DNA from: Hormiphora californensis
Taxonomy: Eukaryota > Animalia > Ctenophora
Reading direction: 5' to 3'
DNA: 64,000 bases
NCBI GenBank assembly: GCA_020137815.1
Contig: CM035358.1
Span: 5,270,001 to 5,334,000 of the forward strand
The first letter of the stretch is position 1. Every line of letters starts with the position of its first letter. The position numbers and the translations under genes are program-made. Under the pieces are notes generated by a model that was not told the origin of the DNA, searched no databases, and saw only the letters and a program-made list of their open reading frames with translations. Below, one piece after another: positions 8,815 to 60,354 of the stretch.

Positions 8815-8858
8815 AGTTTCAAACTTTCATCAACTACAACGTAAAACTATTTATTGAG
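8815..8858 (+). other. Spliced-leader-like sequence, variant 2
   Basis: AGTTTCAAACTTTCATCAACTACAACGTAAAACTATTTATTGAG is 43/44 identical to 43925-43968(-). It shares its AGTTTCAAACTTT start and TTGAG end with the SL-like copy at 56237-56293. It is not followed by GT, so this is not an SL RNA gene. Confidence 0.72.
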
Positions 8859-8913
8859 CAGGTAGATATGGTGATGTGACCGCCCCAAAGGGCAGAAAAG
8901 TGAAACGCTGATA

Positions 8914-9939
8914 ATGAAGCCGATGTACGAAGATAAACGATTTGATAATATTCTTCGCTTACCGTACGAGGGCGATAACCCCAAGATAAAACAACTGATC
9001 GAATCTGTTGATGACTTTGTTTTAGGGGTTGAACGGCTGCATTGGGCTGCTGTTCCCGAACAACAGATAAGTATCACACCCGAGAACGTTAGTCAGTGCT
9101 ATAATTCAATCAAATATGCACCTGCGAGGGATTTTACCCCTGATTGCTCGGGCCCACCAGGAAATAACATGGGGACATTCTTCAAACATCGTCTCAAGGA
9201 CCTTACTCCAAAACAAGTTGTTGATGTTACCACCAACCTCTTTGTTTCCAGTGCTAAGCTTGCTCAAGCAGCGATGAACAATTTGAACACCATTATCACT
9301 GCAGAAAAACTCGAGAAACAACTCTCTACGTGCAAAGAAGAGCTTGAACGAAATCGTGTTTTGATCATTGAACTGCAACAAACGGTCATCAGTGCCCAGA
9401 AAGAACAACTGAGCTCAGTGGAAACGTCAGTGCAGAAGGTGAAAGCTTACTCGACCGTCCTGGCTCAAAACTATGCCGCAGCCTCCCCTGTGGCGAAAAG
9501 GCTGCCAACTCCTCGTAAGCCACCAACGTCTAAGCCTCCTGCTACAGTAGTAGCTCAGTCAAACCGAGAGAAGAACTTGGTAATATTTGGGCTCCCAGAA
9601 ACAACTGAGAACGCTGCTAGAACCAATCTGGATGAGCTATTTGAAGAACTGAATGAGAAACCGAAAGTTGCTAATATGAAACGTATCGGTGAGAAAAATG
9701 AGGAACGCCCTAGGCCGCTCTTGGTATCTCTTGAGAAGAGAGCAACCCTTTTGGCGCTGTTGAAGAAGGCACGGCAACTCAAAGAATCCACAAAACACTC
9801 GACCGTTTATCTGTCACCGGATCTTAACCCCTCCCAACTAAAGGAGCGAAAAGCTCTGCTTGCTACCTTGAAACGGGTTCGGACAGATGATCCAGGAGGC
9901 AATTATTACATTAGAAACAATGTAATCCAAGTCGGATAG
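8914..9939 (+). CDS. LINE ORF1-like RNA-binding protein (coiled coil + RRM-like + CTD), 341 aa
   Basis: Intact ORF with a coiled coil followed by NLVIFGLPE...RIGEK..RPRPLLV...VYLSPDL...ERKAL, typical of CR1/L2-group ORF1. Homologous to 55203-56192. Confidence 0.85.
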   Translation: MKPMYEDKRFDNILRLPYEGDNPKIKQLIESVDDFVLGVERLHWAAVPEQQISITPENVSQCYNSIKYAPARDFTPDCSGPPGNNMGTFFKHRLKDLTPKQVVDVTTNLFVSSAKLAQAAMNNLNTIITAEKLEKQLSTCKEELERNRVLIIELQQTVISAQKEQLSSVETSVQKVKAYSTVLAQNYAAASPVAKRLPTPRKPPTSKPPATVVAQSNREKNLVIFGLPETTENAARTNLDELFEELNEKPKVANMKRIGEKNEERPRPLLVSLEKRATLLALLKKARQLKESTKHSTVYLSPDLNPSQLKERKALLATLKRVRTDDPGGNYYIRNNVIQVG

Positions 9940-10108
9940 CGAACTGAACTGTTTCTATATATGTTACCCCGCTTTAGGTAACTGCCGATGCTTTGAGCCT
10001 CTCGGCCTTGTAGGATATATATACTTAACTATATATGTCTATAGTGTAAGAGCGGGAAGAGTCTGTTAAGAACTCTAATATAAATTGTGATGTTCATTTT
10101 CATTTTCG

Positions 10109-11354
10109 GATAAAAAGACCAAGGTCATCCTAGTTCTTCTGGACCTTTCAGCGGCCTTTGACACCATATCTCATGCCAAGCTACTACACCGCCTGAAACA
10201 TGATTATGGAGTGACTGGAAAGGTATTGAGCTGGATTGAATCATATCTTACTAATCGAACAGCTAGAGTAAAGATAGGTTCGGTCGAGTCAGAAGCAAAG
10301 TCTATCAGCATTGGTGTTCCTCAGGGTTCCATCCTGGGGCCCCTCTTGTTCATACTATACACCAGAGATCTACAGAAAATAGCGGAACTATATGGTCTCA
10401 GCCTGCACATGTATGCGGATGATTCTCAACTTTCGATAGCTTTCACACCAGAAACATTCGATGATGTGATAAAGAAAGTTCAGAGCTGTGTGTCTCATAT
10501 TCGTCTCTGGATGACACAGAACCTGTTGAAGTTGAATCCGGATAAAACAGAAGTTCTTATCCTACGAAACAAATGGGATAAATCTACCAGTGATGCCACA
10601 CTGAACATTGCACAAGAAGAAACGGAAGTCAAACCAGTTGCTAAGAATCTCGGCGTCATGGTCGATAGCGAACTCACGATGTCCCAGCACGTCTCCAGAG
10701 TTGTTCAGTCGTGCAACTACCAACTCGTCAACATGTGGAGAATTGCAGGCAAACTGAACAAAAAGCAAAAGACCCAACTTGTGAACTCACTGATACACTC
10801 AAAGATTGATTATTGTAGCGCTCTACTGATAGGTCTCAAAGACAAGGATGTGAAGCGTCTTCAGAAGCTACAGAACTCTGCCACTCGCTTTGTCCATGGT
10901 AAACGTAGCAGACGTGGTGTAACAGATCTACGGAAAAAATCCCACTTCCTACCTGTTAGACACAGAATAGAATATAAGATCTGTATGATGGTATACAAAT
11001 CCCTGAATAATGGGACGCCTGGATACATATCAGAAATGCTACAAAGACGGAAACAAAAACCGATGAGTTTAAGAGTCGATTGTGACACGACAAGACTGGA
11101 AGAGGTACACAGTAACTACAACTACAAAACCACTGAGAGAGCTTTTAGTATAGCTGCTCCGAGGATCTGGAATCGCCTACCTGAAGAAAAGAGTAAACAC
11201 ACACACGCATTGAGCAAGCTCAATGTTTAGCTATTCTCCGGCTGGGTATAGGGCTCTACTAATACCTGAAGAAATTCGAACCACAGAAACCTTGCCGATG
11301 TTTAAAAAGGCCTTGAAAACCCATATGTTTACTTTGGCTTATGGACCTGAATAA
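10109..11354 (+). pseudogene. Reverse transcriptase ORF2 fragment, interrupted near its C-terminus
   Basis: Lacks the endonuclease and the N-terminal RT motifs. A 73-bp insertion at 11190-11262 introduces a stop. Confidence 0.85.
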
Positions 11355-12286
11355 ACCTCACTCGGCATTATATCAGTACCGCACCATCTTCCCGGCACAA
11401 ATCTACCTGCATCATTTCCTGGGCACCCAGTCCAGTTAACTTCACAGTAAATCTGTTGTTTTCCCCCAGGCTCCAGCTCCGCACATAAACGCCTCATTAT
11501 TCCCTGCCTATAATATTCCTTGCATGCGGTTCTAAATCTGATCCTGTTTCACAACTTTTGGGAAATAGATCCCTCCCTTGGCCTTACCTGGTTCGTTCCT
11601 GGGTTCCCGTGTCCTGTCTGCTGTCTCTCGCTATCACTGCCACCACTACCCTACTTCCAGACCCACACTCCAGCTCCCTTATATCCCACCTATGACCTGC
11701 TGACACAATCCTATATCATTTCTTCCTGGAACTAAATAGTCTACCTCCCTGTCCTTACCTGGTTCGTACCTAGGTTCTCGTGTCCTTTCTGCTGTCTCTC
11801 GCTACCATTGCCACCACGCCCTATTTCCAGACCCACACTCCAGCTCCCCTATATCCCACCTATGACCTGCTTTCTCAATCCTACATCATTTCTTCCTGCA
11901 GTTCCATGGAACTAAATAGTCTGCCTCCCTGTCCTTACCTGGTTCGTTCCTGGGTTTCCCGTGTCCTAGGTGCTGTCTCTTCTTCCAGACCCTCTCTCCA
12001 GCTTCCTTACATCCCACCTGACCTACTGTCTCTACTCTGCACCATTCCTTCCTATATTCCTTCCTACATCCCTTCCTACTTTCTACACCATTCCTTCCTA
12101 CATCTACCTGAGACTTAGTAGAGGGACCACCTATGACTGAGTCAATGAGTTAATATTTTCAAGTGTGCATTTTGTGTAAATTGTTAACATTTTCTGGCCT
12201 CTGAGTTGTTTAGCAGAGTTTGAGTAGCTGAGGTTCCAGACTGGCTGAGTTTTATGCCGAAGAATGAAGAAAGAAGACCATACACA

Positions 12287-12472
12287 CCGTTTTTCTCAAT
12301 ACGTTTTTCTCGATAAAAAACTTGTCAAGGATACCGTTTTTCTCAATACGTTTTTCTCAATAAAAAAACTTTTCAAGGATACCGTTTTTCTCAATACGTT
12401 TTTCTCGATAAAAAACTTGTCAAGGATACCGTTTTTCTCAATACGTTTTTCTCGATAAAAACTTGTCAAGGA
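12287..12472. repeat. ~48-bp tandem repeat in the LINE 3' region
   Basis: ACCGTTTTTCTCAATACGTTTTTCTCGATAAAAAACTTGTCAAGGAT x4. Confidence 0.9.
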
Positions 12473-13087
12473 CTCTTCAGTGAGTGTGTGTTTGAAGGAC
12501 AGCTAATTTATTATTTATTTATTACCGAATCTGTGTGTATGTGTTTGTGATTGTCTGTTTGTCTGTGAATGTGTTTGTACGTGTGTTAGTATGTTTTTGT
12601 ATCAACCGTTTTGTATTGACTGCTGATGTTGTGTTTTGCGTCTGTGACTTTGTGTATTCTGTTTAATCTGTTTTTATGTTTGTCTGCTTGTTTTGTTAGT
12701 TCGTTACCTTGTTTTCTATAACCCCTTGTTCCTCGTATTTTGTGCATCTAATGCTACTAGGATGTGTATCACTGTCTCTAAGTATTGTTTAAACCGCTTT
12801 AGGAAACCGCTGATGTGAACTGTATATTTTCACCTCTCAGCCTTGTATCACTTTATTAGTGTATGGTGTAAGAGCGGGACGAAGTTATATATTAATTGTG
12901 TGACTTTGTGATAAATTGTGCGTAAACTTAAACTTAAACTTAAACGGGCCTCCGGTCCAGCAAGTCCCTGAGTTTCCGGGGTGGGGAGCCAGGGGGTGTT
13001 ATCTAGTGCAAGTTACATCGCAGTATTCCACACCCCCTTTACCATTCGCTCACTGTGAGAAACCCATTTCTCCCCATTAGAGGTGTG

Positions 13088-13398
13088 ATGGCTCGTGGTC
13101 ACCAAAAAGAACTTGCTCAGCAGAAGAACGCTAAAAAAGCAGCGGCTGCGAAAAAGGGATCCGATCAAAAGAAATCTGCTGGAGCTGCTCTCCATTTCAC
13201 CTGTACTGTTTGCAGAGTGAGTAATTTCAAGGGGGGAATTACTATTTACAGTGACATTCTAGTGAGGTTCAGAGCCAAGCTAATCTGTACTTTTTATCCT
13301 TTCAGAGCCAAATGGGAGACCCGAAAACTTACAAGCAGCATTTTGAGAGCAAGCACTCCAAGCTACCTCTACCGGATGTCCTAAAGGATCAAGCCTAA
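13088..13398 (+). CDS. ZNF706: Zinc finger protein 706 (4F5/SERF family + C2H2)
   Basis: Exons 13088-13216 and 13306-13398: MARGHQKELAQQKNAKK...AALHFTCTVCR|SQMGDPKTYKQHFESKHSKLPLP...*. Confidence 0.95.
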
Positions 13399-19253: not shown

Positions 19254-40734
<21,481 letters not shown>

Positions 40735-41497: not shown

Positions 41498-44400
41498 TTA
41501 GATCTCAACTGTTTTTTCTTCTTCACTCCTCTTTCTCAGATCTGGTCTTGTAGGGGGATGTAAAGGGTCGCTCTAGTGATGGCGAGAGAAGGAGGGATGT
41601 GTTGGGAGATATCCCTGCAAACGATGCCCTATGTCTGGTGTTTTGTGGGGTCGAGGTTAGGCCAGCAGATCCACTACCTAAGGAAGATGTTACTAATTAT
41701 TCATTAGATCCATCCAGAATTAATATCACGTAAAGAATTTTGAATCAGAATTCAGAAACATCCACCGTCGCGTAAAGTCTAACCCCCCCCCCCCCAACCA
41801 ACCAAGCTTACAGGACATGCTAATACACTGACCCTCACAAAATTCGCTGCAAGGGACAGTGTATATGCTGTCAAAATCTTACCAGCAAAGATGCTATCAT
41901 CAAGTAAATTCGAGATATCATGCTCGAAACTTGTATAACTCATATTGCTAACTCCACTCCTATCCTTCAACAACCTCCCCTCCTCATCAGGCGAGGAACG
42001 AGTTATCACAGTTGACTGCTCCCCAGAGGGAGGGGAGGTAATGTTCAGTCCGGGTATGACGTCATCTCCCATGATGACATCATCATCAATAATTAGACTG
42101 TCCTCCATTAGGATCAGCGAGTCAACTCCTCCTGCTGCTTCTGCTTCTGTTGGAAGATTCTCCTGTCTTAGTTATTGGCGTGAGATTGGGGGGATCTAAA
42201 AATATGAGAGAATTGCAATATATGTATAATAATACATTGTATATTCAATAATTAGCAAACTAAAGATCTAATTAACTAAAGAATTAGCAAACTAAAGAAA
42301 ATTTTAATGACAATTTAATCAAATCGGTTCTTATCTAAATTTCTACCTCATGTGCACACCACTATCATCATCATCTCCAAAGTCACTGTCTGTCTCGTAT
42401 CCCCTGTTCTCTCTCGCTGCTGCCAGCTCACGTCGCACCCTGAATTTGTTTCCGGGTTAGCCAAACCGCCCGGTTATGGGTATCTATGATATATCGGTAA
42501 CTATGGCCCGGATTGGGAAAAGGAAGGGGGTTCTAGGAGAAGAGGGTCTGACCTGTCACAGTGTCTGGAAAGAAAGATACTGAGAGTATACATTTTCAGT
42601 AGTATTCGCCTCCTCTTCCTCGACATTAGTATCAAGTCCTCATCTCTCTGTTTCAGTCGCACGGCCAGAGTAGGTAGCATTTTGTAGAGCGCTTTGGCTG
42701 ACTCCTAGGAAGTATGAGGGGTTGACAGAAACTTGAATTAGATGGTTTATGAGTGACGGTATCCCGACAGTTTATATTCGAGTTAAAAAGTTAGGGTTTT
42801 TTTGGACAGTTTATATTCGAGTTAAAAAGTTAGGGTTTTTCTGGACAGTTTATATTCGAGTTAAACAGTTAGGGTTAGGGTTAGGGTTATTGTCAACTTC
42901 AGTTTATATATAAACTGAAGTTGACAATAACCCTAACCCTAACCCTAAAATTTCTAAAAATTTAATACAATATTAAATTTTTAGAAATTTAAAAAATGCA
43001 GAAAAAAGTCCTCAACTCACCCTTGAGCCATGAACAGAACAGTCACTGAAGATACTCTTTTTGTAGACACCAGTGTGTGCCTGTATCAGTTCATCTGTAA
43101 TGTCCCACATTGTGTGATGTAACACATGATCATGTAACATGGCCTCCCTACTATATCTGTGGGGAGATGTGTTAAATATTTTAACATGATGGGGATCTGT
43201 GTTAGTAGGATAACAGTACTTGAAACTGTATTTGAAACTGTTTTTGTAACTGTATTTGTAACTGTTTCCCTACTTCATGCACAGTTCGTCAGTGCATTGT
43301 GATAGATAGTGTAACTCACGCGTTTAGGATTTTGATCCTTCTAGACAGCTCATGTGCAGGAGCTAACAGTGGTGCAGTGTTATACGTCTCACGTAGCGTC
43401 ATTTGAGATCTGATGATTGCCACCAGGTAACGTCTACTCAGCTCATCGAGATCACGTTTCACTTTCGTTGTTTTGGTAAGATTGGGCCACAGGGGCCTGT
43501 TGACTCGAACCAGGACTTTCTTCCACCGCAGTACCTGGGAGAAATAAAAAATCATTTGGTACAGAAAGCACTAAGTCTACACTGCCACGCAAAAATCATT
43601 GATAAATTCAGGTTCGTAAAAGGGTATTGGCAATAAATTCTTGTGAAATTTGAATATTTCCAAGAAAAACTACAAAGGCTCAGGCCTTTATCACGCTAGG
43701 ACGTGACTTGTTATTGGTCGAACTAGGGTATGAATTATGATAATAATTTCTTGTGAAATATGAATACTTCCAAGAAAACAATAAAGGCCTAGGCCGTTGA
43801 ACGTGATGCGAGGATAACCATATTATTGCTGCCCCTAAGATAAAGGTTCAGGCTCTCCTGAAAATCAGAACATATTCAATAAAAACCTTGCATATTATTC
43901 AAGAAAGCACGGTGACTTTTGGGGCTCAATAAATAGTTTTACGTTGCAGTTGATGAAAGTTTGAAACTGATATATTATTTTTGCCTTGTTCGACCCTCTC
44001 TCTCTCTCTCCGTGCCCGCAACAAAGATGGTTAGAAAATGACAAATAACTGTGTTCTCAGCCATCTCAAGTCATGAATCCAGTTACAACTGGAAATGTTA
44101 TTGTCTTTTTAACTGTGCTGATGATCGTCTACACTGAAAACTCTGCAAGGTATTTTGGGGGTTTAATTTAAATTCCTGTAAAGTTGTTTTGTCGAACCTC
44201 TAATTTCAAGCTCATGTATTGCCACGTTCTATGAGTTCGAGTCTCCTTGTGGTATTTTCTCTCGCCTACCTACTTTCAACTTTGCTACACCCCTTCTTAT
44301 ATAATATCTGTCTTTTTGGCTTTGGCAATACTCCTAATTTATCCTACCACTTGTACCATCTCCCTATTTTCAGGTTTGGCATCCCTCTCGCCATGATAGG

Positions 44401-47400
44401 GTCAATGCTGAAGAAGAACTGCACTGTCGGAAAGGAGGACTTATGTTGGAGTGAGCAGACGAAAGCGATGGTGATCGGGTCCTACTTCTACGGATACACA
44501 GTCCAAATTATCTCAGTCTACCTGGCACGCCGGTTCAACTGTATGTTGGGTGGTTACAGGTTATATCTTGCTGTTGGGATCGTATCCCAGTTCGCCTACC
44601 CCACGTTAGCTCAAGTCTCCCTGGTGGGTTTGATTTCACTACAGGCTCTACGAGGCTTTATGACAGGGATTATGGTTGCCTACATGTATACCTTTGAGTT
44701 TCAATCTCGGTGGATACCGGCTAGCTTGCGGAGGACATTCATATCCGTTATTGGGGCGACTTGTTACATAGGAAATGGTACTGGTGGTTTGCTGGTGGAG
44801 TTCTTCTCCAGTGCTCTTGGCTGGGAATACTATTTCTATTTCAGTGGCGTTCTGTTTATTATTCTGTTGATCCTGAGTTTGATATTCATGGCTGATAAGC
44901 CTGAAAGCTCCTGGTTTGTTAGAAGTCTGTCTGCCGGTAAAGAAATGAAGAAAGAGGTGAAATTAGCTGTAGATTTAGAAGATGTTGAGGTAAATGGAGA
45001 GAAAGATATCGCGGAAGAAGAGAAAAAGGACAGCGAGGAAGAACCATCGTCGACCCCAACTTCAGTTTCTGTTCGTGACATCCTCTCCCGGGGCTACCTC
45101 TACTCCTTCTGTATCTACTACTTCAGCTACAGTCTGATTTGGTATAATACCCTCAGCACAGGTCCATTCTACCTGCACAACATCCTGGGGGCAGGTACTA
45201 AACCCATTGCAGTACTTGAAACTAGTCTCTCCTTCATAATGGCTGGTAGTTCCATCCTTCTATCCTGGATCTTCCAGACCTTGGATAAACACCTCAGCTG
45301 GCTGACATGCCGACTAACATTCATCTATATCCCCATGGTAATCCAGGTAGTGGTGTTTATTGGGTTTCCTTACATTGCCACATTCACTGGCGCCTCCTTC
45401 CTCCTTGTCCTCAGTACCGTAGCATCGGGCAGCATGTTCAGCGGCTCACTGACTACCGTTAACGTTGAAATTGATCCTGTAAATGCGCCTATCATCCAGG
45501 CATTGTTCAGTGGAGCGGGTCAAATTGCGGGGTTCCTTGGACCAGCTCTAATGGCATGGTTGACATCAGGCGATGATAATGGATGGGACTGGTTCTTTCA
45601 TGTGCTAGCAGCCAGTGCTAGTGTGAGTGTTATTGGGATTGCAGTGAGTATTTATAGTAGGCCGGGTGAGTGGAAGAATCGGAGCAAAAGTGGGGAAACT
45701 TTTAGAAGACAGTAAACTTGTTGTTACTGTATGTTGTTACTGTATGTATTGTTCATCTCCCTATTACCTATACATAATATAAAAACAAGTACTAGATAAA
45801 TAACTAATAAATTCAACTAATAAATTCAACTAATTACCATGAAAATCATCCAGATGATGGTAATAACGTAGAATCCACCATTCAGCACCAGCATCTCATA
45901 GTAAAGGTATTTCTCTGATGGGGGGAGGGGGGGGGGGGTAGCAAGTAGAAATATATCTTTGATGAGTTGAATATACAGCTCTGATATTCTATAGAATATA
46001 CATTGCAGCAAACTATCGGACATGTTATAAAGATTGCATGTTATAATATAGCTATACACACATCTCAGCTCTGATCCTTACCCTGGACGAAAGCGTTTTG
46101 TGTCTCTGTTTCAATGCACGCTCCCACAAAGGCGTTCCAGAAGTGAACGAAGAATGAGAAGAAGAGGATAATGTTGTAGGAGATCAGGCGGTAGGGACGT
46201 CTTGTGAACACGATTCCACCTAAAAATGGTTGTAATTTTCATCGTTCAGAAACTTTTAATAAAATTTCTGCCAGAAACACAATTTGTTTCACAAAATACT
46301 CCTCACTCCGAGCTGCTTCACGATACCGGATACAGCCTCACGTTTAACTCACATAGAACAAAGAAAAATGCAGTGTAAACGAAGGCTTGTACTTTCTCAA
46401 AGTCGAATAGTAAACCATAGATCAGGAGTAATGGCAAACTTGATCATAAACATGTAAACCTGGGGATGGAGGGGTGTTATATATTGGATTGCCATAGCTG
46501 CACGATAGTAAATTGAGAGCAAAAAGATTTACTGCACGAAAGTCGCTATAACTTTTAGAAGAGTGGGGTACTATAAACTATAAACCTACCCTCCAATAAA
46601 CTAGGGGCCTCCGGTAGGACTGAGAGGAGGAAGAATTTAGTTAGTAACCACTCATCATTTATCCCATACACATACTCAGTCTCCTTCAGTAGAGTAAATC
46701 CCTCATGCTCAATCGTGGAATCTGTGGTGGTTATTATTGATTAATTAGTAATTAATAGTTTTAATTGGGAGCAATTAATTAGGTATAGTGATGAGAGAGA
46801 AAATAAATAACAAGCAGCTGGTCTAATTGCCCATTACCTCTTAGCTCATTCACTGGATAACAAAGGAGTTCAGGCCCGGTACCCAACAACTTATCGGTTT
46901 GTGCCCCCAGTTATCGGGTAAAAGGGGTCCCAAATGCACACAATATACTACTTATGAAACCCGATAGCTGATTTATCAGTCATTTGAACATTTTACGCAC
47001 ACACGATATCTGCTAGCTGGGGGATTTAACACCCTGCTCGCTATTTATCAGATCAGTGATCTTTTTCACGCGTTTCTCTTCATTTGCATAACATGCGTGT
47101 AAATTTCCAAGTAATGAAAATGTGTGTAAACACACAGTTCTGTCAATAACGGAGAGGGAAACACATCTGCAACACTTTTGAATGTTATCTCTCTCATAAA
47201 AAGTCAAAAGAATCGCATTCCTATCTCTTCTCTCTCTCATTCTCTCTTTTACTGTGCAATATCTCTCACTGTGTGTATTGGCCCCAATCTTGCTCTCTCT
47301 TAATCAAATATGTTAGGAACAGTAGACACTAAGTCTACACACATTTTGAGGGTGCCTGTTGACTATTTGCCAGCAGTCTTAGTGTGTTTAACCTTGTGTT

Positions 47401-50044
47401 GTGTCTCTTATTTGTGTGTAGTTGCTATCGGGTTTCATAAACTATGAACGTTTGTTAGCCTATCGCGTTATAGGTTTAAATCACCTCCCCCTCACCCTCG
47501 GCTGGCGCCTCGGGATCGGCGTCGGGATTTAAACCAGTTTAATCGCCCTGCCGGGCGATTAAACTCCAGTTGGCTGTCCCCAGCTCGCGCTGGGAACAGC
47601 CAACTTGATAACGCGCCAGTCTACAAACGTTCATATGAACTATGAACGTTTGTAGCTTGGCGCGTTATCAAGTTGGCTGTCGCCAGCGCGAGCTGGCGAT
47701 AGCCAACTGGAGTTTAATCGCCCGGCAGGGCGATTAAACTGGTTTAAATCACGACCCCGAACCCAAGGCGCAGCCGAGGGTGAGGGGGAGGCGATTTAAA
47801 CCTATAACGTGACAAGCTAACAAACGTTCATAGTTTATGAAACCCGATAGCAATTTCACACTAACAAGAGACACAACACAAGGTAAAACACACAAGGAGT
47901 ACTGGCAAATAGTCAACAGACAGTCCCCAAACTGTGTGTAGACTAACTGGCACCTAGTTGCAACTGTTCCTAACATATTTGAGTAAGAGAGAGCAAGATT
48001 GGGGCTGATACACACAGTGAGAGATATTGAACAGTAAAAGAGAGAATGAGAGAGAGAAGAGATAGGAATGTGATTCTTTTGACTTTTTATGAGAGAGATA
48101 ACTTTGAAAAGTGTTGCAGATTTGTTCCCCTCTCTGTTATTGACAGAACTGTGTGTTTACACACAATTTAATTACTCTGGATTTTACACGCATGTTATTC
48201 AAATGAAGAGAAATGCGTGAAAAAGAGAGCGGGACTGTTAAAACACGAGCAGGGTGTTAAATCCCCCAGCTAGCAGTTATCATGAGCGCGCAAAATGTTC
48301 AAACGACTGTTAAATCAGCTATCGGGTTTCATAGTTCATTTAAGGACCCAACAGCATCTCTTACCAGTAAATATATGTTTCTTCACACTCCACCAAATGT
48401 ATATTGGTACTGGGATCCAACAGAGCAGGAGTAAAGTTGGGATGGCTGTGTTTATTACTTGCTCCATACTCTCTAAACTATCCTGCATGCATGGTTGCGT
48501 GGGATCAACATCACTTCGGGGATTACCCTTATCTTTGGAGGGGATAACGATTTTTAGACCAATACACTACTGTTTTTCATATCTTTAGCTTAGGTAGTTT
48601 TCTCGAGGGTTAAATCTTTCTCTCTCTGTTGCATCTTGCTCTCTCTCTCTCTCTTTCGAGTCTTTCAGTAGCGAGAAAAAGACAATTCATTTGAAAGCAG
48701 AAGTAATAACAGATGACTCACATTCAGGGGATTGCGTTCGGCACCACCACCACCTACAAGCCCACGCACCAAACGGTAGAATAGTCGCCTCCGCCAGGAA
48801 CACAAACCATTTGATTAGGTATGCCCTAACTCTCATCGATTTCTCTGATGATGATTAAACGAGTCAGTAACTATTCTTTCCTGTTTTTTATAAGATTCTG
48901 TTTTAAAATTCTAGTCAACTCATCAAATAGTCAATTGTTGTTGTTTTTCTGTTTTACTAACCAGTATCGTCACTAGAGATGACTGCTGTTTTACTAACCA
49001 GTATCGTCACTAGAGATGACTGCTGTTTTACTAACCAGTATCGTCACTAGAGATGACTGCGAAGATTATCCCACAGATCACCACTATTCCGATCATGACA
49101 CCACACACCGCATAGGAGAGGTGACGGTAGGGTATTGGAATGTTGCCCACCACAGCATAACCTAAACGGAGGGAAGGTTTTAAGTGATAAGAGCTATAGC
49201 AAGGGCTGACAAACCTGAAATATACCATACACATTGATACACCTTTAATTGTAATTAATAATTATGTCTCCCGATGAGTCCAGTTAATCGAGGTATACAG
49301 AAAGTATAATATCGCAGCTTTGTATACCTGAATCATCGGGCCAAACACTTGTATCTTCCAGTCTGTTCTCCGATACAACCTTAAACCAGCTCCAATAATC
49401 AAACTGTAGCCAGTAACTCCAGGCAAAGTGACTGAACAAGAGGGGGGGGGGTAGTCATTAGTCAAACTTTAGCGAGTAATCGTATGCAAATTTAGGCGAA
49501 GGATTAGGGTGGATTCGGGTTATGTTTTTGCAAGTAGTGGCACAAGGGAGGCTTTGAACAACTTACTAAGTGAACTTGTAAGACCATGGAGCCCTGAGAT
49601 TTAGAGACAAGATAAACAATATCAGGTAGATCTGGGTGTGGGTGATGAGGAGCATGATTCCATCACTAGCCCACTGTGCCACTGTGTTCTTGGATCTCAC
49701 CTAATAGGGAGCCGGGGGAGTTACAGATAGTGAAATGTTCACGTATTGAACTAACTAGATGATGATACAAAGAAAACGGTTCCTCCTCCGAGGAATGAGG
49801 AGTCCGAAAAATCGAGGTTCAACTATTATAATACCTCATTATTTACCTCATGTATACCTCATTTACCTCATAAGTCATGTAATATACTTCATACACATCA
49901 TACCTCGTTAAACTCATTCTCGAAGTAATCATCATCCTCATTCTGATCCTCAACATCCACCTGTACCTTGGCAGAGTCCCCGACCTCAATTAGGGGCAGG
50001 GTCTCCACATCATCAAAGCCATCTCGTACCTTACTGTAACCCAT
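41498..50044 (-). CDS. Uncharacterised multi-pass membrane protein with a long, low-complexity C-terminal tail
   Basis: ATG at 50044 (MGYSKVRDGFDD...). Many GT-AG-bounded exons carry hydrophobic helices (e.g. YAVCGVMIGIVVICGIIFAVIS, IPTLLLLCWIPVPIYIWWSV, RRPYRLISYNIILFFSFFVHFWNA). The last exon ends KTVEI* at 41498. Family not recognised. Confidence 0.7.
42869..42948. repeat. Perfect 80-bp palindrome bounded by (TTAGGG)3...(CCCTAA)3
   Basis: TTAGGGTTAGGGTTAGGGTTATTGTCAACTTCAGTTTATA|TATAAACTGAAGTTGACAATAACCCTAACCCTAACCCTAA. Confidence 0.92.
43925..43968 (-). other. Spliced-leader-like sequence, variant 2 (second copy)
   Basis: The reverse complement, AGTTTCAAACTTTCATCAACTGCAACGTAAAACTATTTATTGAG, differs from 8815-8858 by one base. 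It is followed by CCCC, not GT. Confidence 0.72.
44073..45715 (+). CDS. SLC17 / sialin-like MFS organic-anion transporter, nested antisense in an intron
   Basis: Exon 44073-44149 (MNPVTTGNVIVFLTVLMIVYTENSAR) plus 44374-45715. WSEQTKAMVIGSYFYGY, GWEYYFYFSG..., and GQIAGFLGP..W..FF match the SLC17 pattern, with about 12 hydrophobic segments. Confidence 0.85.
46953..48333. mobile_element. Composite ~1.4-kb foldback element
   Basis: The arms mirror about ~47635. Each arm has two modules with their own inverted ends (TATGAAACCCGATAG...CTATCGGGTTTCATA and TATGAACGTTTGT...ACAAACGTTCATA). Confidence 0.85.
48949..49059 (-). repeat. 37-bp x3 repeat spanning a splice donor
   Basis: Minus-strand unit CAGTCATCTCTAGTGACGATACTG|GTTAGTAAAACAG. 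Confidence 0.92.
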
Positions 50045-50404: not shown

Positions 50405-53284
50405 TCATTTGAACAAACTACCTGTTTGATTTCCCAACCTGCTCAAAAAGTCCACACCATCATCACCACTGACAGCCCGCACCACAGTTGGCTCGGGATC
50501 ATGCGCATCACCCACGTACACATTCTCAACATCATCCGCCAGAAGATCGTCTGTTGTTAGGAACATTTCGGAGAGGTTTCCCGAGCTGGGAGGGTTGATT
50601 AGCAGGGCTGAGTTCACAGCTGGTTCATCTGGGATTGTTAGACGTTCTCTGGGTGCCGCGGGGGATGGTTCCCTGGGTAGTTCATCGGATGAGACTTCCT
50701 GGATTAACATTTTGGGAGCAGGGGAAGGTTTTGCGATGGGGGTTGAGAGCATTTCTTCTAGTAGCATGGCATCCCCTCGCACTCCCCCAGACGTAGATTC
50801 CTCTTCCTCATCTTCATCATCATCATCATCATCATCGATGTCACGAGAGACAATACTACTGAATATGTCTGATGTTGTTGGAGCTGTTATTGTTGTAGGT
50901 TGATTGAAAATTGACTCTGTCTGCGCTGAAGGGGCTGACAGTTCCACAATCTCCTGTTGTTCCACAATATCCTGTTCCTCGGACTGTTCACCACTAGGTT
51001 GTGTGACGAACGTGGCAGGTTCAGTACTAGATCCAGGTTCACTGCTAGGTGCAGGTTCAGTACTATCTTGATCTGCAGAACTAGGTTGATCTGCAGTGTC
51101 AGGTTCCTCAAGCTCTGGCATATCTTCATAATCCATCTCTTCATCCTCTTCTTCCTCTCCAATGGCATATCCCTGGACCTGGACCATCTTCTTCGGTTGC
51201 TCAAAGTTCCCTGCCTTGTCAAGCTCATCTGACTTGGTTGCTAGGGACTCGGGAATGAGCATGCCACTTTTCGTTCTGATCACACCGTCCGGAAGTTTCT
51301 TTTCTGTGGCATTCTGAGGAGGAGGAAATATTATATAACGGTAGTCAGTAAATAAAAGTTTACACAAAGTGTTCAATGAATTATTAGTAGAGGGGTTGTA
51401 GCACCGGGAGGTAATGAGTAAACACACACACACGCATTGAGCAAGCTCAATGTTTAGCTATTCTCCGGCTGGGTATAGGGCTGAGGTACTGGCAAGATAT
51501 AGTAGGATCGCTACTGCCCACATGTCAAGTCTATTCGGATATACAAGTTTAAAAGGTTGGGGGGTCACAGGGACCGTCTTAGCTTCGCTCCCCGTTAACA
51601 TTGCCTGTAACCGGGGGTCCACTAAGCTCTCATATATACTCGGCCATTACTCCCAACCACTAGTAGTGGTTTTCAGTACCTCTTATACTGGTAATTCCGT
51701 ATAGAAACAATCCTTGTGTTTTAATTAATGTTTTAATTAATGTGTGGTAATACTGGGTCAGTGCAAGATATACGGAGTGATCGCTATTAAAACACAAGGA
51801 TTGTTTCTATACGGAATTACCAGTATAAGAGGTACTGAAAACCACTACTAGTGGTTGGGAGTAATGGCCGAGTATATATGAGAGCTTAGTGGACCCCCGG
51901 TTACAGGCAATGTTAACGGGGAGCGAAGCTAAGACGGTCCCTGTGACCCCCCAACCTTTTAAACTTGTATATCCGAATAGACTTGACATGTGGGCAGTAG
52001 CGATCCTACTATATCTTGCCAGTACCTCAGCCCTATACCCAGCCGGAGAATAGCTAAACATTGAGCTTGCTCAATGCGTGTGTGTGTGTTTACTCAATGA
52101 ATTAACTTGGTGAATCACAAAAAGCTTGGTTCATACCTTTTTTATTCTTTGCATGGACTGATAACAGTTCTCAATCTTAGCCCTCTCCCGGGCAATCCAC
52201 CTCTGTCTCTCCTCCTTCTCTGCCTCTGCTCCTCCCCGAGCCCAGGCCTCCGCACAAGCCCTGTCTTTTGGAAAGACCGGTCGGTCATCGAGGTACTTCA
52301 AATTAGCTAACCTTACCGTCAAGATCTGAAATATAGAAAAGAGTTATGAAAATGATTGGAAGATAACCAGTTTCAAGAGAATTTTTAGTTCCACCACCCA
52401 CCTTTCGGTAGTTTTTGATCTTTTTAATAACCGGATTTCCCATTAGATTCACGACAGCTAGCTCTGGTAGTTTCTCCAAAACATCAACTATCACTGGATC
52501 TTCGAGGCTGTTGTTTGACAGGTCAATAACAGAGAGTTTGGGACAACCGACAAGTCCATCTAGAGCATCGCTGGCCCGTAACCTTGAAAAGGAGAGAGAG
52601 ATTGATAATGTCTGCCCGGTTAAATGAAAGTTTGTGCAATCTTTACAAACAATTATAATAATTGGATTTGGTATGGCAGTACCTATGTAATAAACATTTT
52701 ATAACCTAACTTTACCTGTTCTTGGATATCTGTAGGGTATGCATGGATTCCACCATGTTCTCGATCTTTGAAATGTAGTTGTTGCTAACATTGAGGGTGT
52801 GGAGCTGTACCAACGGCTCTAGATTTTCAATCTTGTTTAGGAGATTCTGCTGCAGGTACAGGCACTTCAACTCTTTCTGGTTATCTAAATTTTCTATCTT
52901 CTGGATACCGTTGGCCTCCAACCAAAGGCACTTCAACCCCGTGTACAATTCAAGATTTTCAATCTTCCCGAATCCTTGAAAGTGGAGATAGAGAATGTCA
53001 TTGAGTTCCGGGGTAGCATATCCTTTCTGTTGTTTGCAGATTTTCTTGATCGATTCCAATGTCATTCGTGGACCGTTATCGATGGGAGTTTTTGTGGCCG
53101 TGTTAACATTGTTCTCCTTGATAAGATCCTTCTTGACTTCTTCAATCTTGATTGAATTCTTCTCAGCTGGTGTTGGAGTTATTTCTGACATTGAAACGTC
53201 CTCTCGGTTTGTATCTGTTGTTGTTTCTGTCTTTCCAGTCAGAACAGCAGCTTCCGTGGGTGTGATTTCTTCGATGAACGGCAT
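50405..53284 (-). CDS. DNAAF1: Dynein axonemal assembly factor 1 (LRRC50/ODA7)
   Basis: Exons 53284-52716, ~52582-52403, ~52326-52137, ~51314-50405. Motifs: [52 protein letters not shown], LRRs, [24 protein letters not shown], and an acidic tail. Confidence 0.95.
51416..52095. mobile_element. Young foldback MITE with ~310-bp perfect inverted arms and a ~60-bp spacer
   Basis: GAGTAAACACAC...GTGTGTTTACTC flanked by AAT on both sides. The mirror ORFs 51450-51704 and 51807-52061 are identical. Confidence 0.9.
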
Positions 53285-54521: not shown

Positions 54522-55202
54522 GAAAGCCGGCTGTTTAGCGTACTTCGTTGCCCGGCTTTGAGTTTTCCATCAAAGTTCCATAACACTCCCATAATTTAAT
54601 GGGTGTGGAATACATGTCACAAAGACATGTGAGCACTGAGCTGATGAGAAATGTGACACTGACAGGGGTACTAATGAGGTTAACTATTAGTAATAGGGTT
54701 GATGTGATCTGATAGCAGGAGATCTGAGAGAACTGTAGAAATAGAAGGTGTCCCTATAGCAACATGAATGATTATGACGACACCTCGACCAAAATGACGT
54801 GTCTGGAACGCGCGGGTAGGAAGTTGAATTGAAAGTTTCTAATGTCTTCTGTGTGTGCTGTGCGCGCCGCGCGATTTCCTTTTTGGCTGCCGTAGTTACG
54901 TCAGTTCACCAATATTTCGTCACAACACGCCATTGGATGTTTTAATGAAGGAGCAGGCTGTCGCTTAGATACCGCCTAACTAACGGCCATCACGACGTTC
55001 ATCTCCAAATTATAATAGAGATGCATTATTTTTCGAATTCATCATCATCATCATTAACAACATTTATTATCCCGCTTTATAGCATATTTGTAAGATAACA
55101 CTTAAAAAAGAAAAACTTTACGGCTACCTCACTGCTTTCAAAAGCGGTTTATCAATATATATGATCTGTATATTATATTGTCTTGATCAAGTGTTTATAC
55201 GA

Positions 55203-56192
55203 TTAATTGTCCCTTGGTGCTACTAACACCCTCTTTCCATGGATTATGTAGTGTGTTCCAGGGGACTGTTTCACCTTCTCCTTCAGTTCAACTACTAACT
55301 GTTTCCGTTCCCTACGTTCTTCAACTGTTCTATCAGGAGAAAGAAAAACTTTACCAAACTTGTCATTCCCTTTTAGCAGGGATTTCTTCGACATTATTGA
55401 CATTTGAGCGTCTCTACTCCTCAGCACCACTTTTACAGGTCTTGCAGATGAAGACTGCTTTCCTAAGCGCTCGGCGGATTTCACTTTCGGAGCCTCTTCA
55501 AGCTCAGTAAAAAGAGACTTAATTTGAGTTTCAAGCTCATCACCATTAACATTGTCTTTCAACTCTTCCAATCCGTGGATAATGATGTTACACCCACGGT
55601 CCTCCGAAGCTGCCACGATAGCCGATTGAATCTTCTTTGGAGCCAGGGCCGAGGCACATTCCTTCTCCAAAACTGATGCAAAGCTCTTCAATTCTTGTTG
55701 TGCCGTTGACTGCACAGCTGTTATCTCAACCTCCCTCTTCTCAAGTAGCTGCCTCTGGATCTTCAGCAGTTCCTCTTGTGCTGCTACAAGGGCTCTTTGG
55801 GATTTGATTAGCTCTTTACTCTGCATTTTGAGCTCCTTCTCTAGCTGGTTTATCTTCAAGGTTTCGTAACCCACCGTAGACAACTGTTCAGTAACTGGGA
55901 AGGTCTGTTCTATCAGAATACGGCATGCACCCTCCACAAGGTCTAGAAGCACTGGCTTGTTCAATGCATTCAGTTTGTTCCTGGAGGGAACTTTCAGATC
56001 ATCCCATACTTCCTCTGTCTGTTTTCCGTACTGCACTCGGCTCGGGTCAATTTCACCGAACCCACTGGTTAGCGTTAGTAATTCGCTTACCCACTCCACG
56101 GTTCGTTCTTGACAGTATCGGATGTGTTCCTCTTCAACGTCTGTTCCTTGCAGGTAGATCCGCGTTTCTTCTTCATTATCGGAGCTTCCCAT
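55203..56192 (-). CDS. LINE ORF1-like RNA-binding protein, 329 aa
   Basis: Intact ORF with a coiled coil, then NIIIHGLEE...ERLGK..ARPVKVVL...VFLSPDRTVEERRERK. Divergent homolog of 8914-9939. Confidence 0.85.
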   Translation of the reverse strand: MGSSDNEEETRIYLQGTDVEEEHIRYCQERTVEWVSELLTLTSGFGEIDPSRVQYGKQTEEVWDDLKVPSRNKLNALNKPVLLDLVEGACRILIEQTFPVTEQLSTVGYETLKINQLEKELKMQSKELIKSQRALVAAQEELLKIQRQLLEKREVEITAVQSTAQQELKSFASVLEKECASALAPKKIQSAIVAASEDRGCNIIIHGLEELKDNVNGDELETQIKSLFTELEEAPKVKSAERLGKQSSSARPVKVVLRSRDAQMSIMSKKSLLKGNDKFGKVFLSPDRTVEERRERKQLVVELKEKVKQSPGTHYIIHGKRVLVAPRDN

Positions 56193-56236
56193 TTTCTTGC
56201 TGCCCTCTTGGGCTCTTACATAGACATTTGCTGAAA

Positions 56237-56293
56237 CTCAAATTAATTTGTTTAAAGTAGTGTTGAAAAGTAGTGTTGAAAAGTTTGAAACTC
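56237..56293 (-). other. Spliced-leader sequence, variant 1, with an internal 13-nt duplication
   Basis: GAGTTTCAAACTTTTCAACACTAC[TTTTCAACACTAC]TTTAAACAAATTAATTTGAG matches the cydippid ctenophore SL as I recall it (needs confirmation). It is not followed by GT. Confidence 0.78.
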
Positions 56294-56900
56294 GTGCGGA
56301 GCGATAGCGAAAATCCGGTTCCGCCACCACTGCACTGAAAAATTGAAAATGCTACATAAAAGAATGAAGCTGTCAACTAGTTCAAAGTATCACGTGATGC
56401 CTCCTACCAGGTCGAGTTTTCTGGCTGGGTCCACTTTTCTTTTTTGGCAAACGTTGTTGGCCAGTGGCCCCCGGGATAAGGCAGCGCTTTTCAACTTTTC
56501 TTTGAAGTCTCACAAAAAATTCCTCTTCGCACGAGTGTTACGGATCAGCGGCGCGCGGCGGCTATAAGTACTGCAGCGCTTAGACGAAGTTTTCGCCGCC
56601 GCGCCCATCGTCACACAAAACCGTGCAAAAACCTTTTTATTTTTTCCCTTTTTCTAAGGGAACAGCGACACCGGAAAACGTTAAAATCTGGGGGGCGCCG
56701 TTACGATCTGGGTGTTTGGTTGAAAAGCGCTGCCTTATCGGGGGCCAGCAACGTTTGCCAAGGTGTTTGGAGGCCTGTTTACAGGTGTGCACTGCCAAAA
56801 AATTTGATTCACTAAAATGGCTCTAACCGCCAAACCACTCAACCGTTTTGGCTGATTCAAAGTTTATCTGGTAGGGAATGTCAAGGCCTAACCCCAACCC

Positions 56901-56966: not shown

Positions 56967-57035
56967 GAAAAACCGTTTGTCAGCACTCCCAAAACACCCA
57001 GATTTTAACGCTGGCTAAATCTGGGTGCCTTTCAA

Positions 57036-59040
57036 TGGGATCCCATCAACAGTAAAACTCTTACTGATAATGGACCACAGTGATGGTTCTTTCTCTGTAT
57101 TCTCTCTGTGTCGCGCCCACGCCCGGGCATGTCCTATTAGTAAGGGGATTTAACTAAGATTTTAGCCCCAACCAGAAAAAAATTTGTTACAAAGGATTTC
57201 CACCTGAAACGTACTCCTAAGGGTCCCCTCTATCGATTCCAACTAATGCTCATATTTGCTCAGGGGTGCTAAGGCCTCATTTCCGGGTGGGCGTGGTACC
57301 TGTATTTTCAGCTTGAGGCCAAAACCATAAATACCCTTAAAATAGGAGTAGAGACAAAACTGAGGGCACTAAAATGATCAGCGTCCTCGAATTAGTGGGG
57401 GTAGGTGCTAAAATTAAGTCTCTATCTCATCTGGTTAATTAGATAATTGGATAATTAGGTTTGCGCATAACCGTTTTTTGGCTATATGGCTATAGCCACT
57501 TAGGAATGGTTAAGAGACTTTTCATTGGTGCCATTTTGTAGGCAAAGCGAAATTATGGGGGGTCGACGTCGGACTTTTAAGCTCTATCTTCAACCGTTTA
57601 GCCGTTATTTGGCTTTTAAGATGCTCCAAATGAGCAAAATACGGTAAAAAGTCCAATTTTGAACACCGTTAAAGCCAAATAACGGCTAAACGGTTGAAGA
57701 TAGAGCTTAAAAGTCCGACGTCGACCCCCCATAATTTCGCTTTGCCTACAAAATGGCACCAATGAAAAGTCTCTTAACAATTCCTAAGTGGCTATAGCCA
57801 TATAGCCAAAAAACGGTTATGCGCAAACCTAATTATCCAATTATCTAATTAACCAGATGAGATAGAGACTTAATTTTAGCACCTACCCCCACTAATTCGA
57901 GGACGCTGATCATTTTAGTGCCCTCAGTTTTGTCTCTACTCCTATTTTATAGTAGAGTCGATAACTACATCGACCTCTCCCAATTGTTCCAGTTTTTGTC
58001 ACATCTGTTTGGAGCGTCAACACGACCTCTAAACAGGTGTTACTTTTTCACAAACTGTTTTCATCTTGGTGTAATCAGCAGTTGAAATGTTGCTTATCAT
58101 AACAAAAACCTGAATAAATTTTTTCAACTTGGGGTAAAACCATGGGTGTCAAAAGTTAGCTCTAGGTCCCCTGAGTAACCATCCGGAGACTCTAAGAGAT
58201 ATTTCAAGCCGTTCTCCCGTAATCATTAATCCCGGTAGAGCACATATTTGAGTATGGACGTACGTGCAATTGCCTACAACCTCAACTTTAATGTATAACG
58301 TTAATGTGCGTCTCTCTCTTTTCTCCCCCTTGAGAAAGAGTTATCTCGCGCGGCGCAACCGCACGTGCGGTTTTTCCAGAGAGAGTGAGAGACATACAAT
58401 AACATGTAAACAGCCTGCCAGCGCTCACGTACGTCCGCATTGTATTTTTTTCTCCACCGGGATTAATGATTACGGGAGAACGGCTTGAAATATCTCTTAG
58501 AGTCTCCGGATGGTTACTCAGGGGACCTAGAGCTACTTTTTGACACCCATGGTTTTACCCCAAGTTGAAAAAATTTAGTCAGGTTTTTGTTATGATCAGC
58601 AACATTTCAACTGCTGATTACACCAAGATGAAAACAGTTTGTGAAAAAGTAACACCTGTTTAGAGGTCGTGTCGAGGCTCCAAACAGATGTGACAAAAAC
58701 TGGAACAATTGGGAGAGGTCGATGTAGTTATCGACTCTACTATTAAGGGTATTTATGATTTTGGCCTCAGGCTGAAAATACAGGTACCACGCCCACCCGG
58801 AAATGAGGCCTTAGCACCCCTGAGCAAATATGAGCATTGGTTGGAATCGATAGAGGGCACCCTTAGGAGTACATTTGAGGTGGAAATCCTTTGTAACAAA
58901 TTTTTTTGTGGTGTTCCTGGCTTATCACCTTACTATATAGTTCTTTCTCTGTATTCTCTCTGTAGGCAGAGAGAATACAGAGAAAGAACCATCACTGTGG
59001 TCCATTATCAGTTAGAGTTTTACTGTTGATGGGATCCCAT
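57036..59040. mobile_element. Three nested palindromic elements
   Basis: Outer inverted ends TGGGATCCCATCAACAGTAAAACTC (57036-57108 / 58967-59040); a middle foldback 57138-58935 (family of 15321-16486); and an inner palindrome 57950-58742. Confidence 0.85.
57950..58742. mobile_element. PIF/Harbinger-like foldback MITE
   Basis: TAGTAGAGTCGATAACTAC...GTAGTTATCGACTCTACTA with a TTA duplication. The empty site CCTATTTTAAGGGT is visible in the paralogous element at ~16277. Confidence 0.85.
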
Positions 59041-60354
59041 TAATGGGATGCCATTCAGTTAGAGTTTCCCCTTGCTAACAATTCGTAGTTTTAGAGCGTG
59101 GACGGGTTAGGGCTATCCGTTAGGGTCTGGTTAGGGTTTGGTTTGGGGTTATCGGTTAGGGCTATCGATTCTCTATCAGTTACCGTTTAGTTCACTCAAA
59201 TTTGCCATGTGGTTGCGTGGCTATAGCCGTTTGAAAAAAGTCGGTCTAAGTGACAGATGCGATCCGAGAAGACAGAATAGGGAAGGTGATCCAGAGGAAG
59301 GAAGAGGAGGTGATGCGAACTGAAGAGAATTTAGGAAGGTTTGGGAGATCTAGGTTTGATGGAGATGCCAGCAGATGGTGAGTCCATTGAAGGTCGACAG
59401 TAGGAACTTAATTATCTGTTCGGTTGATTGCCGGTTGAAGAGTGTGAACAGCCGCTTGTTCTAGTAGGTTTAGACTGAGGCAGGAAGAAGAAGAGGAGAG
59501 GATAGATGTAAAATTCCAGTCCATAGTGTTCAGTCTTTAGCCCAGTTCGGAGAGGTTAATCTTTTTGTAAGACGAGCTGTCTCGTCTCCTTTTCTGTGCA
59601 ACTGTACCTCAAATGTTACACCACATAACCACTCTATAAATCAATTTCAATATTAGCTTTGTATGGATATGTTAATTGGAACGATAATGAAGGCAAGTAT
59701 TCTGGAAAGACGTTGTGCTGTTCGAAAACCTCATACCATATTGCAGTAAGTACTTTTTAAGTGTGATTATTTTTCAGTTTCAACTGTACTGAACCGCAGT
59801 TTCAACAGTTTTTTAAATGGTAATGTTTAGCTGTTGTAGTATCCAGTATCACAATTACAAGCAACCGATTATTATTTCATCCCGGCCTGCTTGTTGATTA
59901 TTAGAATCCAAGAAAGCACCACTTGATCGTGTATACAAGTACTACTGCAAGTCAGCAAGTGTAGTATAGTATTTTGCATGTGATATTTATCGTGTTTTCA
60001 GCGTGTAAATCTTCACTCATCAATCGTCCAAGTTTTCCGTTGTGTACCACAAGTCTTTAAAGAATATGATATATTGCTTATGAACCACCCATGAACCTCT
60101 TTTTGTTTTATTTGTAGTTTGATTTCTCGATCGATCGGGCAGTCCCATTTCATCCCCTAGTGACGTACTGCACCTCACGCAAACAAATTTCTCTTTGCAT
60201 TCCCCGACGGTATATTTCCATAGGGAATGGAATTTTATGTTAAGCAAACAATGACTGCATATACTCTCCTCATATTAGGAATTGAATACTTACCTTTCCT
60301 TTTGCCGCCCTTGGTCTTGCTAATCCAAGAGTATCCACCTTCCCTGCTGTGGAG

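Follow-up and report, generated by a model that had tools for sequence, protein, structure and literature searches.

A 64,000-nt stretch of the genome of the ctenophore Hormiphora californensis (contig CM035358.1, positions 5,270,001 to 5,334,000; hereafter the window) carries a compact retroelement, E1, which consists of the host's spliced leader (SL), a short 5' untranslated region (UTR), a single open reading frame (ORF) of the ORF1 type known from long interspersed nuclear elements (LINEs) and a structured 3' tail, with no ORF2. We found that E1 belongs to a dispersed, repeated family which spreads in this ORF1-only form, and that its ORF1 is under purifying selection. Our verdict is that the E1 family is a real and long-lived kind of ORF1-only non-autonomous LINE, with an SL head of which we found no description. 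As to its propagation, we give a probability of roughly one half to a reading in which host trans-splicing adds the SL to the RNA at a fixed site and the reverse transcriptase (RT) of a partner LINE, which would recognize the 3' stem and the terminal repeats, copies that RNA into DNA.

E1 and its ORF1-only relatives

A preliminary description of the window, drawn from its letters alone, had listed the head, UTR, ORF1, stem, ATAAAT and (TGA)5 of E1, and all of these parts were found where it had placed them (Table 1), with 55 nt between the ORF1 stop and the stem.

Table 1. Features of E1, of the E2 block and of related sequences in the window.
Feature	Position	Strand	Remarks
E1 head: ctenophore spliced leader SL1 with 13-nt tandem duplication	56237..56293	-	duplication copies 56280-56268 and 56267-56255
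E1 5' UTR, 44 nt	56193..56236	-	TTTCAG at start; GCCC-N4-GGGCAG motif 56213-56200 (predicted 4-bp hairpin)
E1 ORF1, 329 amino acids	55203..56192	-	type II ORF1p of the LINE-1 kind, with a long coiled coil, an RRM and a C-terminal domain
E1 3' stem-loop	55071..55147	-	long inner stem inside outer CCGCTTT/AAAGCGG stem; shuffle z -3.5
E1 terminus	55039..55070	-	ATAAAT (55067-55062), then (TGA)5 (55053-55039); same ending in metagenome locus L001
Third genomic SL copy, SL2	43925..43968	-	43/44 bases as in E2; no ORF1, no GT donor behind
E2 head: SL2	8815..8858	+	by sequence likeness to SL1
E2 5' UTR	8859..8913	+	same hairpin motif (8882-8895)
E2 ORF1, 341 amino acids	8914..9939	+	multi-copy in organisms A and B
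E2 tail	9969..10107	+	stem 9969-10056; ATAAAT 10080-10085; short TTCATT-type repeats
5'-truncated LINE ORF2 (RT and C-terminus)	10109..11354	+	RVT_1 E 1.7e-19; short repeat insertion ~11189-11262
T3: third stem tail	12794..12945	+	(TAAACT) repeats at end; homologous to E2 tail; no ORF1 in front

Copy number and boundaries were judged from contigs of public sequencing runs. In three DNA runs the summed depth over the E1 ORF was 10,980-31,871 (X1), 994-3,256 (X2) and 6,637-142,664 (X5), compared to 129, 13 and 79, respectively, in the upstream flank bin 56363-56443; the ORF thus lies about 100-fold or more above its flank, depth not being a copy number. Single difference-free contigs over the ORF reach a depth of 357 in X2 and 4,020 in X5. 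Further, a protein search with E1 ORF1 returned 24 matches, ten of them at 61-86% identity, and the ORF1 relatives include proteins that their source annotates as Pleurobrachia bachei. The proposal that E1 belongs to a retroposon family is borne out by its multi-copy state in the three runs and by these subfamilies. No target-site duplication was found around E1, the longest flank match being 4 nt, and no joint skipping the element, as an empty site would give, is present among the 15 joints listed of 65. One flank contig stops two bases inside the head, which hints at a branch there and is no proof of one. On the strand of E1 and 1.75 kb downstream of it there is an exon of a leucine-rich-repeat gene (window 52712-53284, minus strand).

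A metagenome scan with ORF1 yielded 45 loci (L001-L045), among which L040-L045 are the weakest matches. None of the 39 closer loci, 20 of which have at least 400 nt of downstream sequence, shows a same-strand ORF2 behind ORF1; as a positive control, all six distant loci L040-L045 do so and are ordinary two-ORF LINEs. With the tail of E1 lying within 60 nt of the ORF1 stop, these loci sustain the earlier claim that the unit has no ORF2. A near-identical bicistronic LINE, of which E1 might be a recent deletion, was found nowhere in the sequences searched, and neither were longer fused forms of ORF1, the latter being weak evidence. Full-length ORF1 relatives sit on contigs with a median length of 1,337 nt (30 hand-picked lengths).

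The ORF1 protein itself was not recognized as any ORF1 family in Pfam. An AlphaFold model, built from a 26-row alignment (mean pLDDT 80, pTM 0.39), features a helix of 100 residues together with an RRM and a small domain at the C-terminus. The nine top Foldseek matches of this model are chains of the human LINE-1 ORF1p trimer (2yko, best E 7e-6), and an independent structure search (VIA-align) likewise ranked an ORF1p RRM first (2w7a, Z 10.6, root-mean-square deviation 2.4, 86 residues aligned), the next unrelated match having a Z of 8.8. With LINE-1 ORF1p at the top of two structure searches, the predicted protein folds like a type II LINE ORF1p, in keeping with the preliminary description of an intact LINE ORF1. 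Type II ORF1 is present in L1, CR1, L2 and R1 elements (PMC4120745); therefore, ORF1 alone leaves the clade undecided.

The ratio of nonsynonymous to synonymous substitution rates (dN/dS) between E1 and its closest relatives, a comparison called for at the outset, is 0.153 for L001 and 0.233 for L002, and 0.13-0.27 in six of seven further pairs, the synonymous rate (dS) being saturated in the remaining one. Within the tables of variants, counted from the 40 best-supported rows of each, synonymous changes make up 23 of 31 variants in the E1 ORF and 18 of 32 in that of E2, compared to about 23% of sites (22.5% for E1). The ORF1 is thus under purifying selection.

Upstream of ORF1, relatives lacking this SL have a different conserved head: the motif GC.C.CTTATC, chosen post hoc, occurs in eight of 24 such upstream regions against a shuffle mean of 0.42 and maximum of 3. 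Besides this motif, the upstream regions of L004-L030 often have TACA right before the ATG. Going by these sequences, the GC.C.CTTATC/TACA heads are possibly the internal promoter of a wider radiation of ORF1-only elements in marine plankton animals. One locus further features, in opposite orientation at the very end of its ORF1 copy, a 1,652-amino-acid open frame with RT similarity and a 2A-like GDIETNPGP at its start (L020:3315-8270, minus strand).

At the RNA level, run X18, which is RNA by guess, gave SL matches and no cover of the E1 ORF, which shows neither expression nor silence. In the oligo-dT metatranscriptome X9 a single 260-nt contig of an E2 relative was found, with a depth of 11.5 that is too weak to use, and no SL-ORF1 RNA contig was seen among the assembled contigs.

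The spliced-leader head and its junction

The 57-nt head of E1 is the 44-nt H. californensis leader printed in PMC8527503 with 13 nt duplicated in tandem. According to that paper, 56% of Iso-Seq reads bear the leader, and there are 718 genomic copies in Hormiphora and 491 in Mnemiopsis leidyi, for which the passage concerned states no origin. In run X18 the SL stands at or near contig ends in six of eight listed pieces and continues into unrelated sequences, as a leader of mRNAs would. What had been described as an SL-like head is thus the published ctenophore SL. The 13-nt SL start occurs three times in the window against 0.32 expected (one mismatch allowed), and the stem pattern of the tail three times against 0.07; both search patterns were derived from E1 itself, which contributes one match to each by construction. 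An Rfam search returned nothing. The head of E2 (SL2) has the first 13 nt and the TTGAG end in common with SL1, and by sequence appears to be a second, SL-like variant of the leader.

The third genomic SL copy in the window, a lone SL2, is separated by about 260 nt from where a long plus-strand ORF (44231-45715) begins, and is upstream of exon-like stretches on the minus strand. At 67-100 nt past this copy runs TTTTCAG ... AGGGGCAG CAA..ATGG, a loose echo of the E1 UTR.

Among the metagenome loci, L002 carries an SL1 that agrees with the leader in all 41 compared bases; behind it come TTTTAG and a UTR in which the GCCC-N4/5-GGGCAG motif recurs. The SL is identical between E1 and L002 over these 41 bases although their dS is 1.08. 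L001 begins within the UTR, and in the other 43 of the 45 loci this SL is not seen. The UTR motif said to link E1 and E2 was recovered in both, and also in L001 and L002. When 389 proteins were scanned for translations of SL1 and SL2, five ORF1 relatives were found to have one at the N-terminus, P0117 with SL1 and P0012, P0291, P0300 and P0373 with SL2; the one further 6-mer match, inside an RT, is by chance. P0291 and P0300 are probably from one locus. In these proteins the SL is read as an in-frame peptide, so that an open frame is required.

Together this gives seven distinct SL-headed copies (E1, E2, L002, P0012, P0117, P0291/P0300 and P0373), in which the SL stands directly before the UTR. 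They span three ORF1 lineages, namely those of E1, E2 and P0373, the P0373 cluster being 44% identical to E2, and their upstream flanks are unlike one another. In all seven the junction falls at the last base of the SL exon, with no intron sequence of the SL RNA behind it. P0012 shows SL2 followed by FQKMS, which matches the E1 UTR read in that frame (FQQMS), while E1 itself has SL1. The best tree places E1 with the two SL2 copies (82/91), and E2 is a long branch of unsure position in the 41-row tree. A rejection of the SL1 clade at p 8e-7 was set aside, since unlabelled rows had been forced out of the clade and the test was unfair.

Behind the SL, TGATGT stands at +14 in E2 and +15 in L002, and the majority letters behind genomic SL1 copies (23 contigs of X1 and 19 of X2; agreement 0.46) also read TGATGT at +14. 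This recurrence hints at related elements behind many different genomic SL copies. The summed SL depth exceeds the ORF depth more than 10-fold in X1 and X2; therefore, the E1 subfamily alone accounts for a minority of the genomic SL copies. The flanks upstream of these copies are dissimilar, with an agreement of 0.49 over 20 contigs in X1.

The 13-nt duplication of E1 was considered as the relic of an SL stack and this was ruled out, as the joint lacks an AG. By eye, brief duplicated stretches in tandem are frequent upstream of ORF1, at the 5' end, in L007, L010, L017/L018, L022, L025 and L028, and the duplication in E1 may be a signature of how such insertions finish. The leading AG of the SL is kept in E1, E2, the third SL copy and P0373, and is missing in four copies: L002 has TG (L002:52-56), and L or M precedes the SL peptide in P0012, P0117 and P0291. 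In viral contigs there were no matches to the SL, ORF1 or RT, and the SL pattern had two bacterial matches in prokaryote genomes, approximately the number estimated for chance.

Tails, the E2 block and the candidate helper

E1 has a 3' stem-loop followed by a short terminal repeat, which is the general layout of stringent L2 tails (PMC1636434, PMC4176376). A CGCT...AGCG stem followed by AAAT was found in seven of the loci L001-L039, with a clear 3-5-nt repeat behind it in six; the pattern also occurs once by chance inside the ORF2 of L045. The outer stem, of 5-6 bp, is kept in nine of nine tails, with one compensatory pair (U-A, U-G or C-G), and is predicted to enclose 40-71 nt including inner stems. 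Single tails fold better than their shuffles (z -1.4 to -3.5). E1 and E2 tails have only the outer stem and ATAAAT in common (local score 20, shuffle mean 17). Other tail types were seen by eye among ORF1-only elements, namely A runs or CAAT repeats (L005, L006, L009, L010 and L011, L017, L018). As related ORF1-only elements end in these ways, tails may be exchanged among helpers, by analogy with SINEs (short interspersed nuclear elements).

E2 had been described as a second unit of the same architecture at 8815-10107. This holds for its SL-like head and its divergent 341-amino-acid ORF1, which is 27% identical to that of E1 over 277 amino acids; the unit is not self-contained, in that an RT fragment starts one base behind its tail. 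The fragment is multi-copy and 90% identical to residues 594-955 of a 983-amino-acid APE-RT protein, P0168. Other copies continue upstream of 10108 into RT, which makes the fragment a separate 5'-truncated insertion and rules out E2 ORF1 plus fragment as one deleted LINE. The motifs of the fragment tentatively mark it as L2-like. Its depth persists for at least 200 nt past the stop, and the first stem tail downstream, 1.4 kb on, is T3. Some 125 nt of T3 align with the E2 tail (score 45 against a maximum of 32 in 300 shuffles), which makes the two homologous. From the sequence it is somewhat more likely than not that T3 is the 3' end of the RT LINE behind a long UTR and that E2 shares the tail of that LINE.

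E2, the truncated RT element and T3 form a co-oriented block (8815-12945) with no target duplication, which could be a template-switch chimera or a nested insertion. Shortly behind it, near 13088, begins a small spliced gene that is presumably zinc-finger 706-like. A 68-nt piece of the element at 51415 interrupts the RT fragment at about 11189-11262.

A proposed cycle, its alternatives and known systems

Three features point to a template RNA that was trans-spliced, and repeatedly so: the junction lies at the end of the exon in all seven copies, synonymous sites have diverged whereas the SL has stayed the same, and the SL types alternate. We propose the following cycle. First, a genomic copy would be transcribed, likely by read-through from flanking DNA. 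Second, the spliceosome would use the AG that ends the copy's own SL as acceptor and install a fresh SL, so that the same 5' end is renewed and the SL type can be swapped; the fixed junction, the unchanged SL and the presence of two SL types on one UTR type speak for this step. Third, the mRNA would yield ORF1p, which the computed purifying selection suggests the element needs and which, judging from LINE biology, may bind in cis. Fourth, the APE-RT of a separate, probably L2-type LINE would prime on the 3' repeats and insert the copy without a clear target duplication. We favour the combination of read-through and the SL's own AG as acceptor, at about even odds, because in these lineages an SL is present wherever the sequence upstream can be seen. 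The proportion of transposable-element Iso-Seq reads that carry an SL in Hydra, about 30% (PMC12220107), was counted in favour of SL-capping.

Several observations weigh against this reading. In DNA the SL is visible at just one of the 45 loci, L002, and the sister group L003/L004 is without it in 35 and 108 nt of upstream sequence. The UTR of P0373, at 21 nt, is too short for the layout seen in E1. A single SL1 clade is not rejected (p-AU 0.094), nor is an SL2 clade (0.122), both with labelled rows only. TGATGT, whose spacing from the SL hardly varies, could act as an internal promoter. The tail of E1 resembles neither the E2 tail nor T3 beyond the stem, no partner LINE was found for E1, and the link from T3 to the RT fragment spans 1.4 kb, over the first 200 nt of which alone depth was followed. 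Finally, GAG is a weak splice acceptor, and a better-looking TTTCAG or TTTTAG 6 nt past the SL's AG persists in the copies, a puzzle for the splicing model. The suggestion in the preliminary description that the adjacent TTTCAG/CAG is the acceptor of the next cycle fits poorly with this: E1, L002 and, in translation, P0012 still have a TTTCAG-type sequence after the SL and were thus not spliced there, and TTTCAG as a working acceptor is ruled out. Its broader idea of a 5' end set by trans-splicing has indirect backing from an SL unchanged across diverged subfamilies and from two SL types at one junction, and is weakened by the SL1 clade that is not rejected.

The strongest competitor, if an unlikely one, holds that SL-less masters with their own promoter and outron make the RNA, that the SL-headed copies are promoterless end products, and that only unspliced RNAs found new masters. 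This would account for the fresh SL, for swaps of SL type and, with a real outron acceptor just upstream, for the retained TTTCAG; the GC.C.CTTATC head of the SL-less relatives (8/24) would then be a possible promoter element. However, in all seven copies of the SL-headed lineages with visible sequence before the UTR that sequence is the SL, albeit in a small sample, and no non-SL loose end at the start of the UTR is present among the matches listed.

Less probable again is that one or a few events of SL capture gave the element a head that is now fixed. Transcribed from an internal promoter starting at the first base of the SL, the element would mimic a trans-spliced mRNA without being spliced, in the manner of the snRNA-headed SINEU. 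The retention of TTTCAG, the near-constant spacing of TGATGT and the fact that one clade per SL type is not rejected all agree with such a capture, and in SINEU heads were added repeatedly (PMC4494074). Yet an exact match to the host SL across a dS above 1 would demand strong selection on every base, a junction at the exon's last base without SL-RNA intron sequence in seven of seven copies counts against it as well, and the E1-type UTR is found with both SL types.

NeSL, CRE and SLACS are LINEs specific to SL RNA genes. The remaining alternative, which derives the elements from a two-ORF LINE, by internal deletion or as processed copies, or takes them for insertions targeted to SL RNA genes like those of these three, could appeal to the RT fragment adjoining E2, to the distant two-ORF relatives L040-L045 and to a comparison confined to run contigs and metagenome loci, but is very improbable and largely refuted by the absence of ORF2 in 39 closer loci, the many subfamilies (61-86% identity) under purifying selection, the extension of the RT fragment upstream into RT in other copies, which marks a separate insertion, the dissimilar genomic SL flanks (0.49 agreement, 20 contigs of X1) and the lack of a GT donor behind the tail. 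The conserved flanks that insertion into SL RNA genes entails were not seen, as the upstream flanks of E1, E2, L002 and the loose ends differ and no SL intron stands behind the tail.

Going beyond the cycle proposed above, it is conceivable, though on balance doubtful, that a promoterless element, read through by host transcription and renewing its own 5' end through the AG of the SL, persists in several lineages and makes up much of the 718 and 491 SL copies counted in the genomes of Hormiphora and Mnemiopsis. In a bolder form, the helper LINE would itself lack ORF1, so that one LINE would be split into two separately copied units.

Non-autonomous LINEs that retain ORF1 are known as HeT-A (from Jockey), HAL1 (from L1) and Ag-Sponge (from CR1) (PMC5786205, PMC5753468). 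Like these, the E1 family would have ORF1p as its sole protein, no RT or endonuclease, a LINE-type 3' end and the need for a helper in trans; unlike them, it has a host spliced leader as head and a tail of a stem plus 3-6-nt repeats as described for L2. The passage on ORF1-only LINEs in Kojima 2018 lists no L2-derived case. If the present reading is true, the family would add a fourth origin of ORF1-only retroposons beside the Jockey-, L1- and CR1-derived ones. HAL1 has an L1-type poly(A) end and a target-site duplication, whereas E1 ends in a stem and (TGA)5 without such a duplication. As in UnaL2/UnaSINE, ZfL2-1 and ZfL2-2 (PMC1636434, PMC4176376), a 3' stem-loop precedes a short terminal repeat, which there is common to the LINE and its passenger. 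Those tails have a GGAUA loop, whereas here the outer stem is predicted to surround 40-71 nt that form inner stems, and the passenger is protein-coding.

Dinoflagellates have retrogenes tagged with an SL (PMC6050394), and in Schistosoma mansoni six SL exons are merged to transposable elements (PMC5832876). In those cases, as we propose here, a genomic SL at the 5' end marks a copied trans-spliced RNA; those are host genes, isolated loci and transcripts, whereas here several long-lived ORF1-only families begin with one full SL, which is joined at a constant position and has no relic stack. SINEU (PMC4494074) similarly has a small-nuclear-RNA head without a known internal promoter that was added more than once, but it is a SINE, whereas the E1 family encodes ORF1p and its head stops exactly where the SL exon is spliced. 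In the literature searched, which included few subscription papers and had Repbase and Dfam outside its scope, neither ORF1-only elements with an SL head nor the present ctenophore families were found described.

If SL-headed copies are sources, trans-splicing would solve the problem of keeping a defined 5' end and a promoter through reverse transcription, a solution of which we found no description. The E1 family may also explain part of the hundreds of unexplained genomic SL copies and offers a testable source for them; PMC8527503 treats these copies, in the passage concerned, mainly as a mapping nuisance. Genomic SL copies create false shared first exons in annotation. The 13-nt duplication of E1 is a natural tag, which would be lost if the SL is exchanged.

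Elsewhere in the window there are many long fold-back repeats (6269-6940, 51415-52096, 46953-48333 and 57034-59041), including a perfect 672-nt palindrome without a spacer. A small gene with a predicted signal-peptide-like start is present at 30539-35029 in three tandem copies that are about 90% alike.

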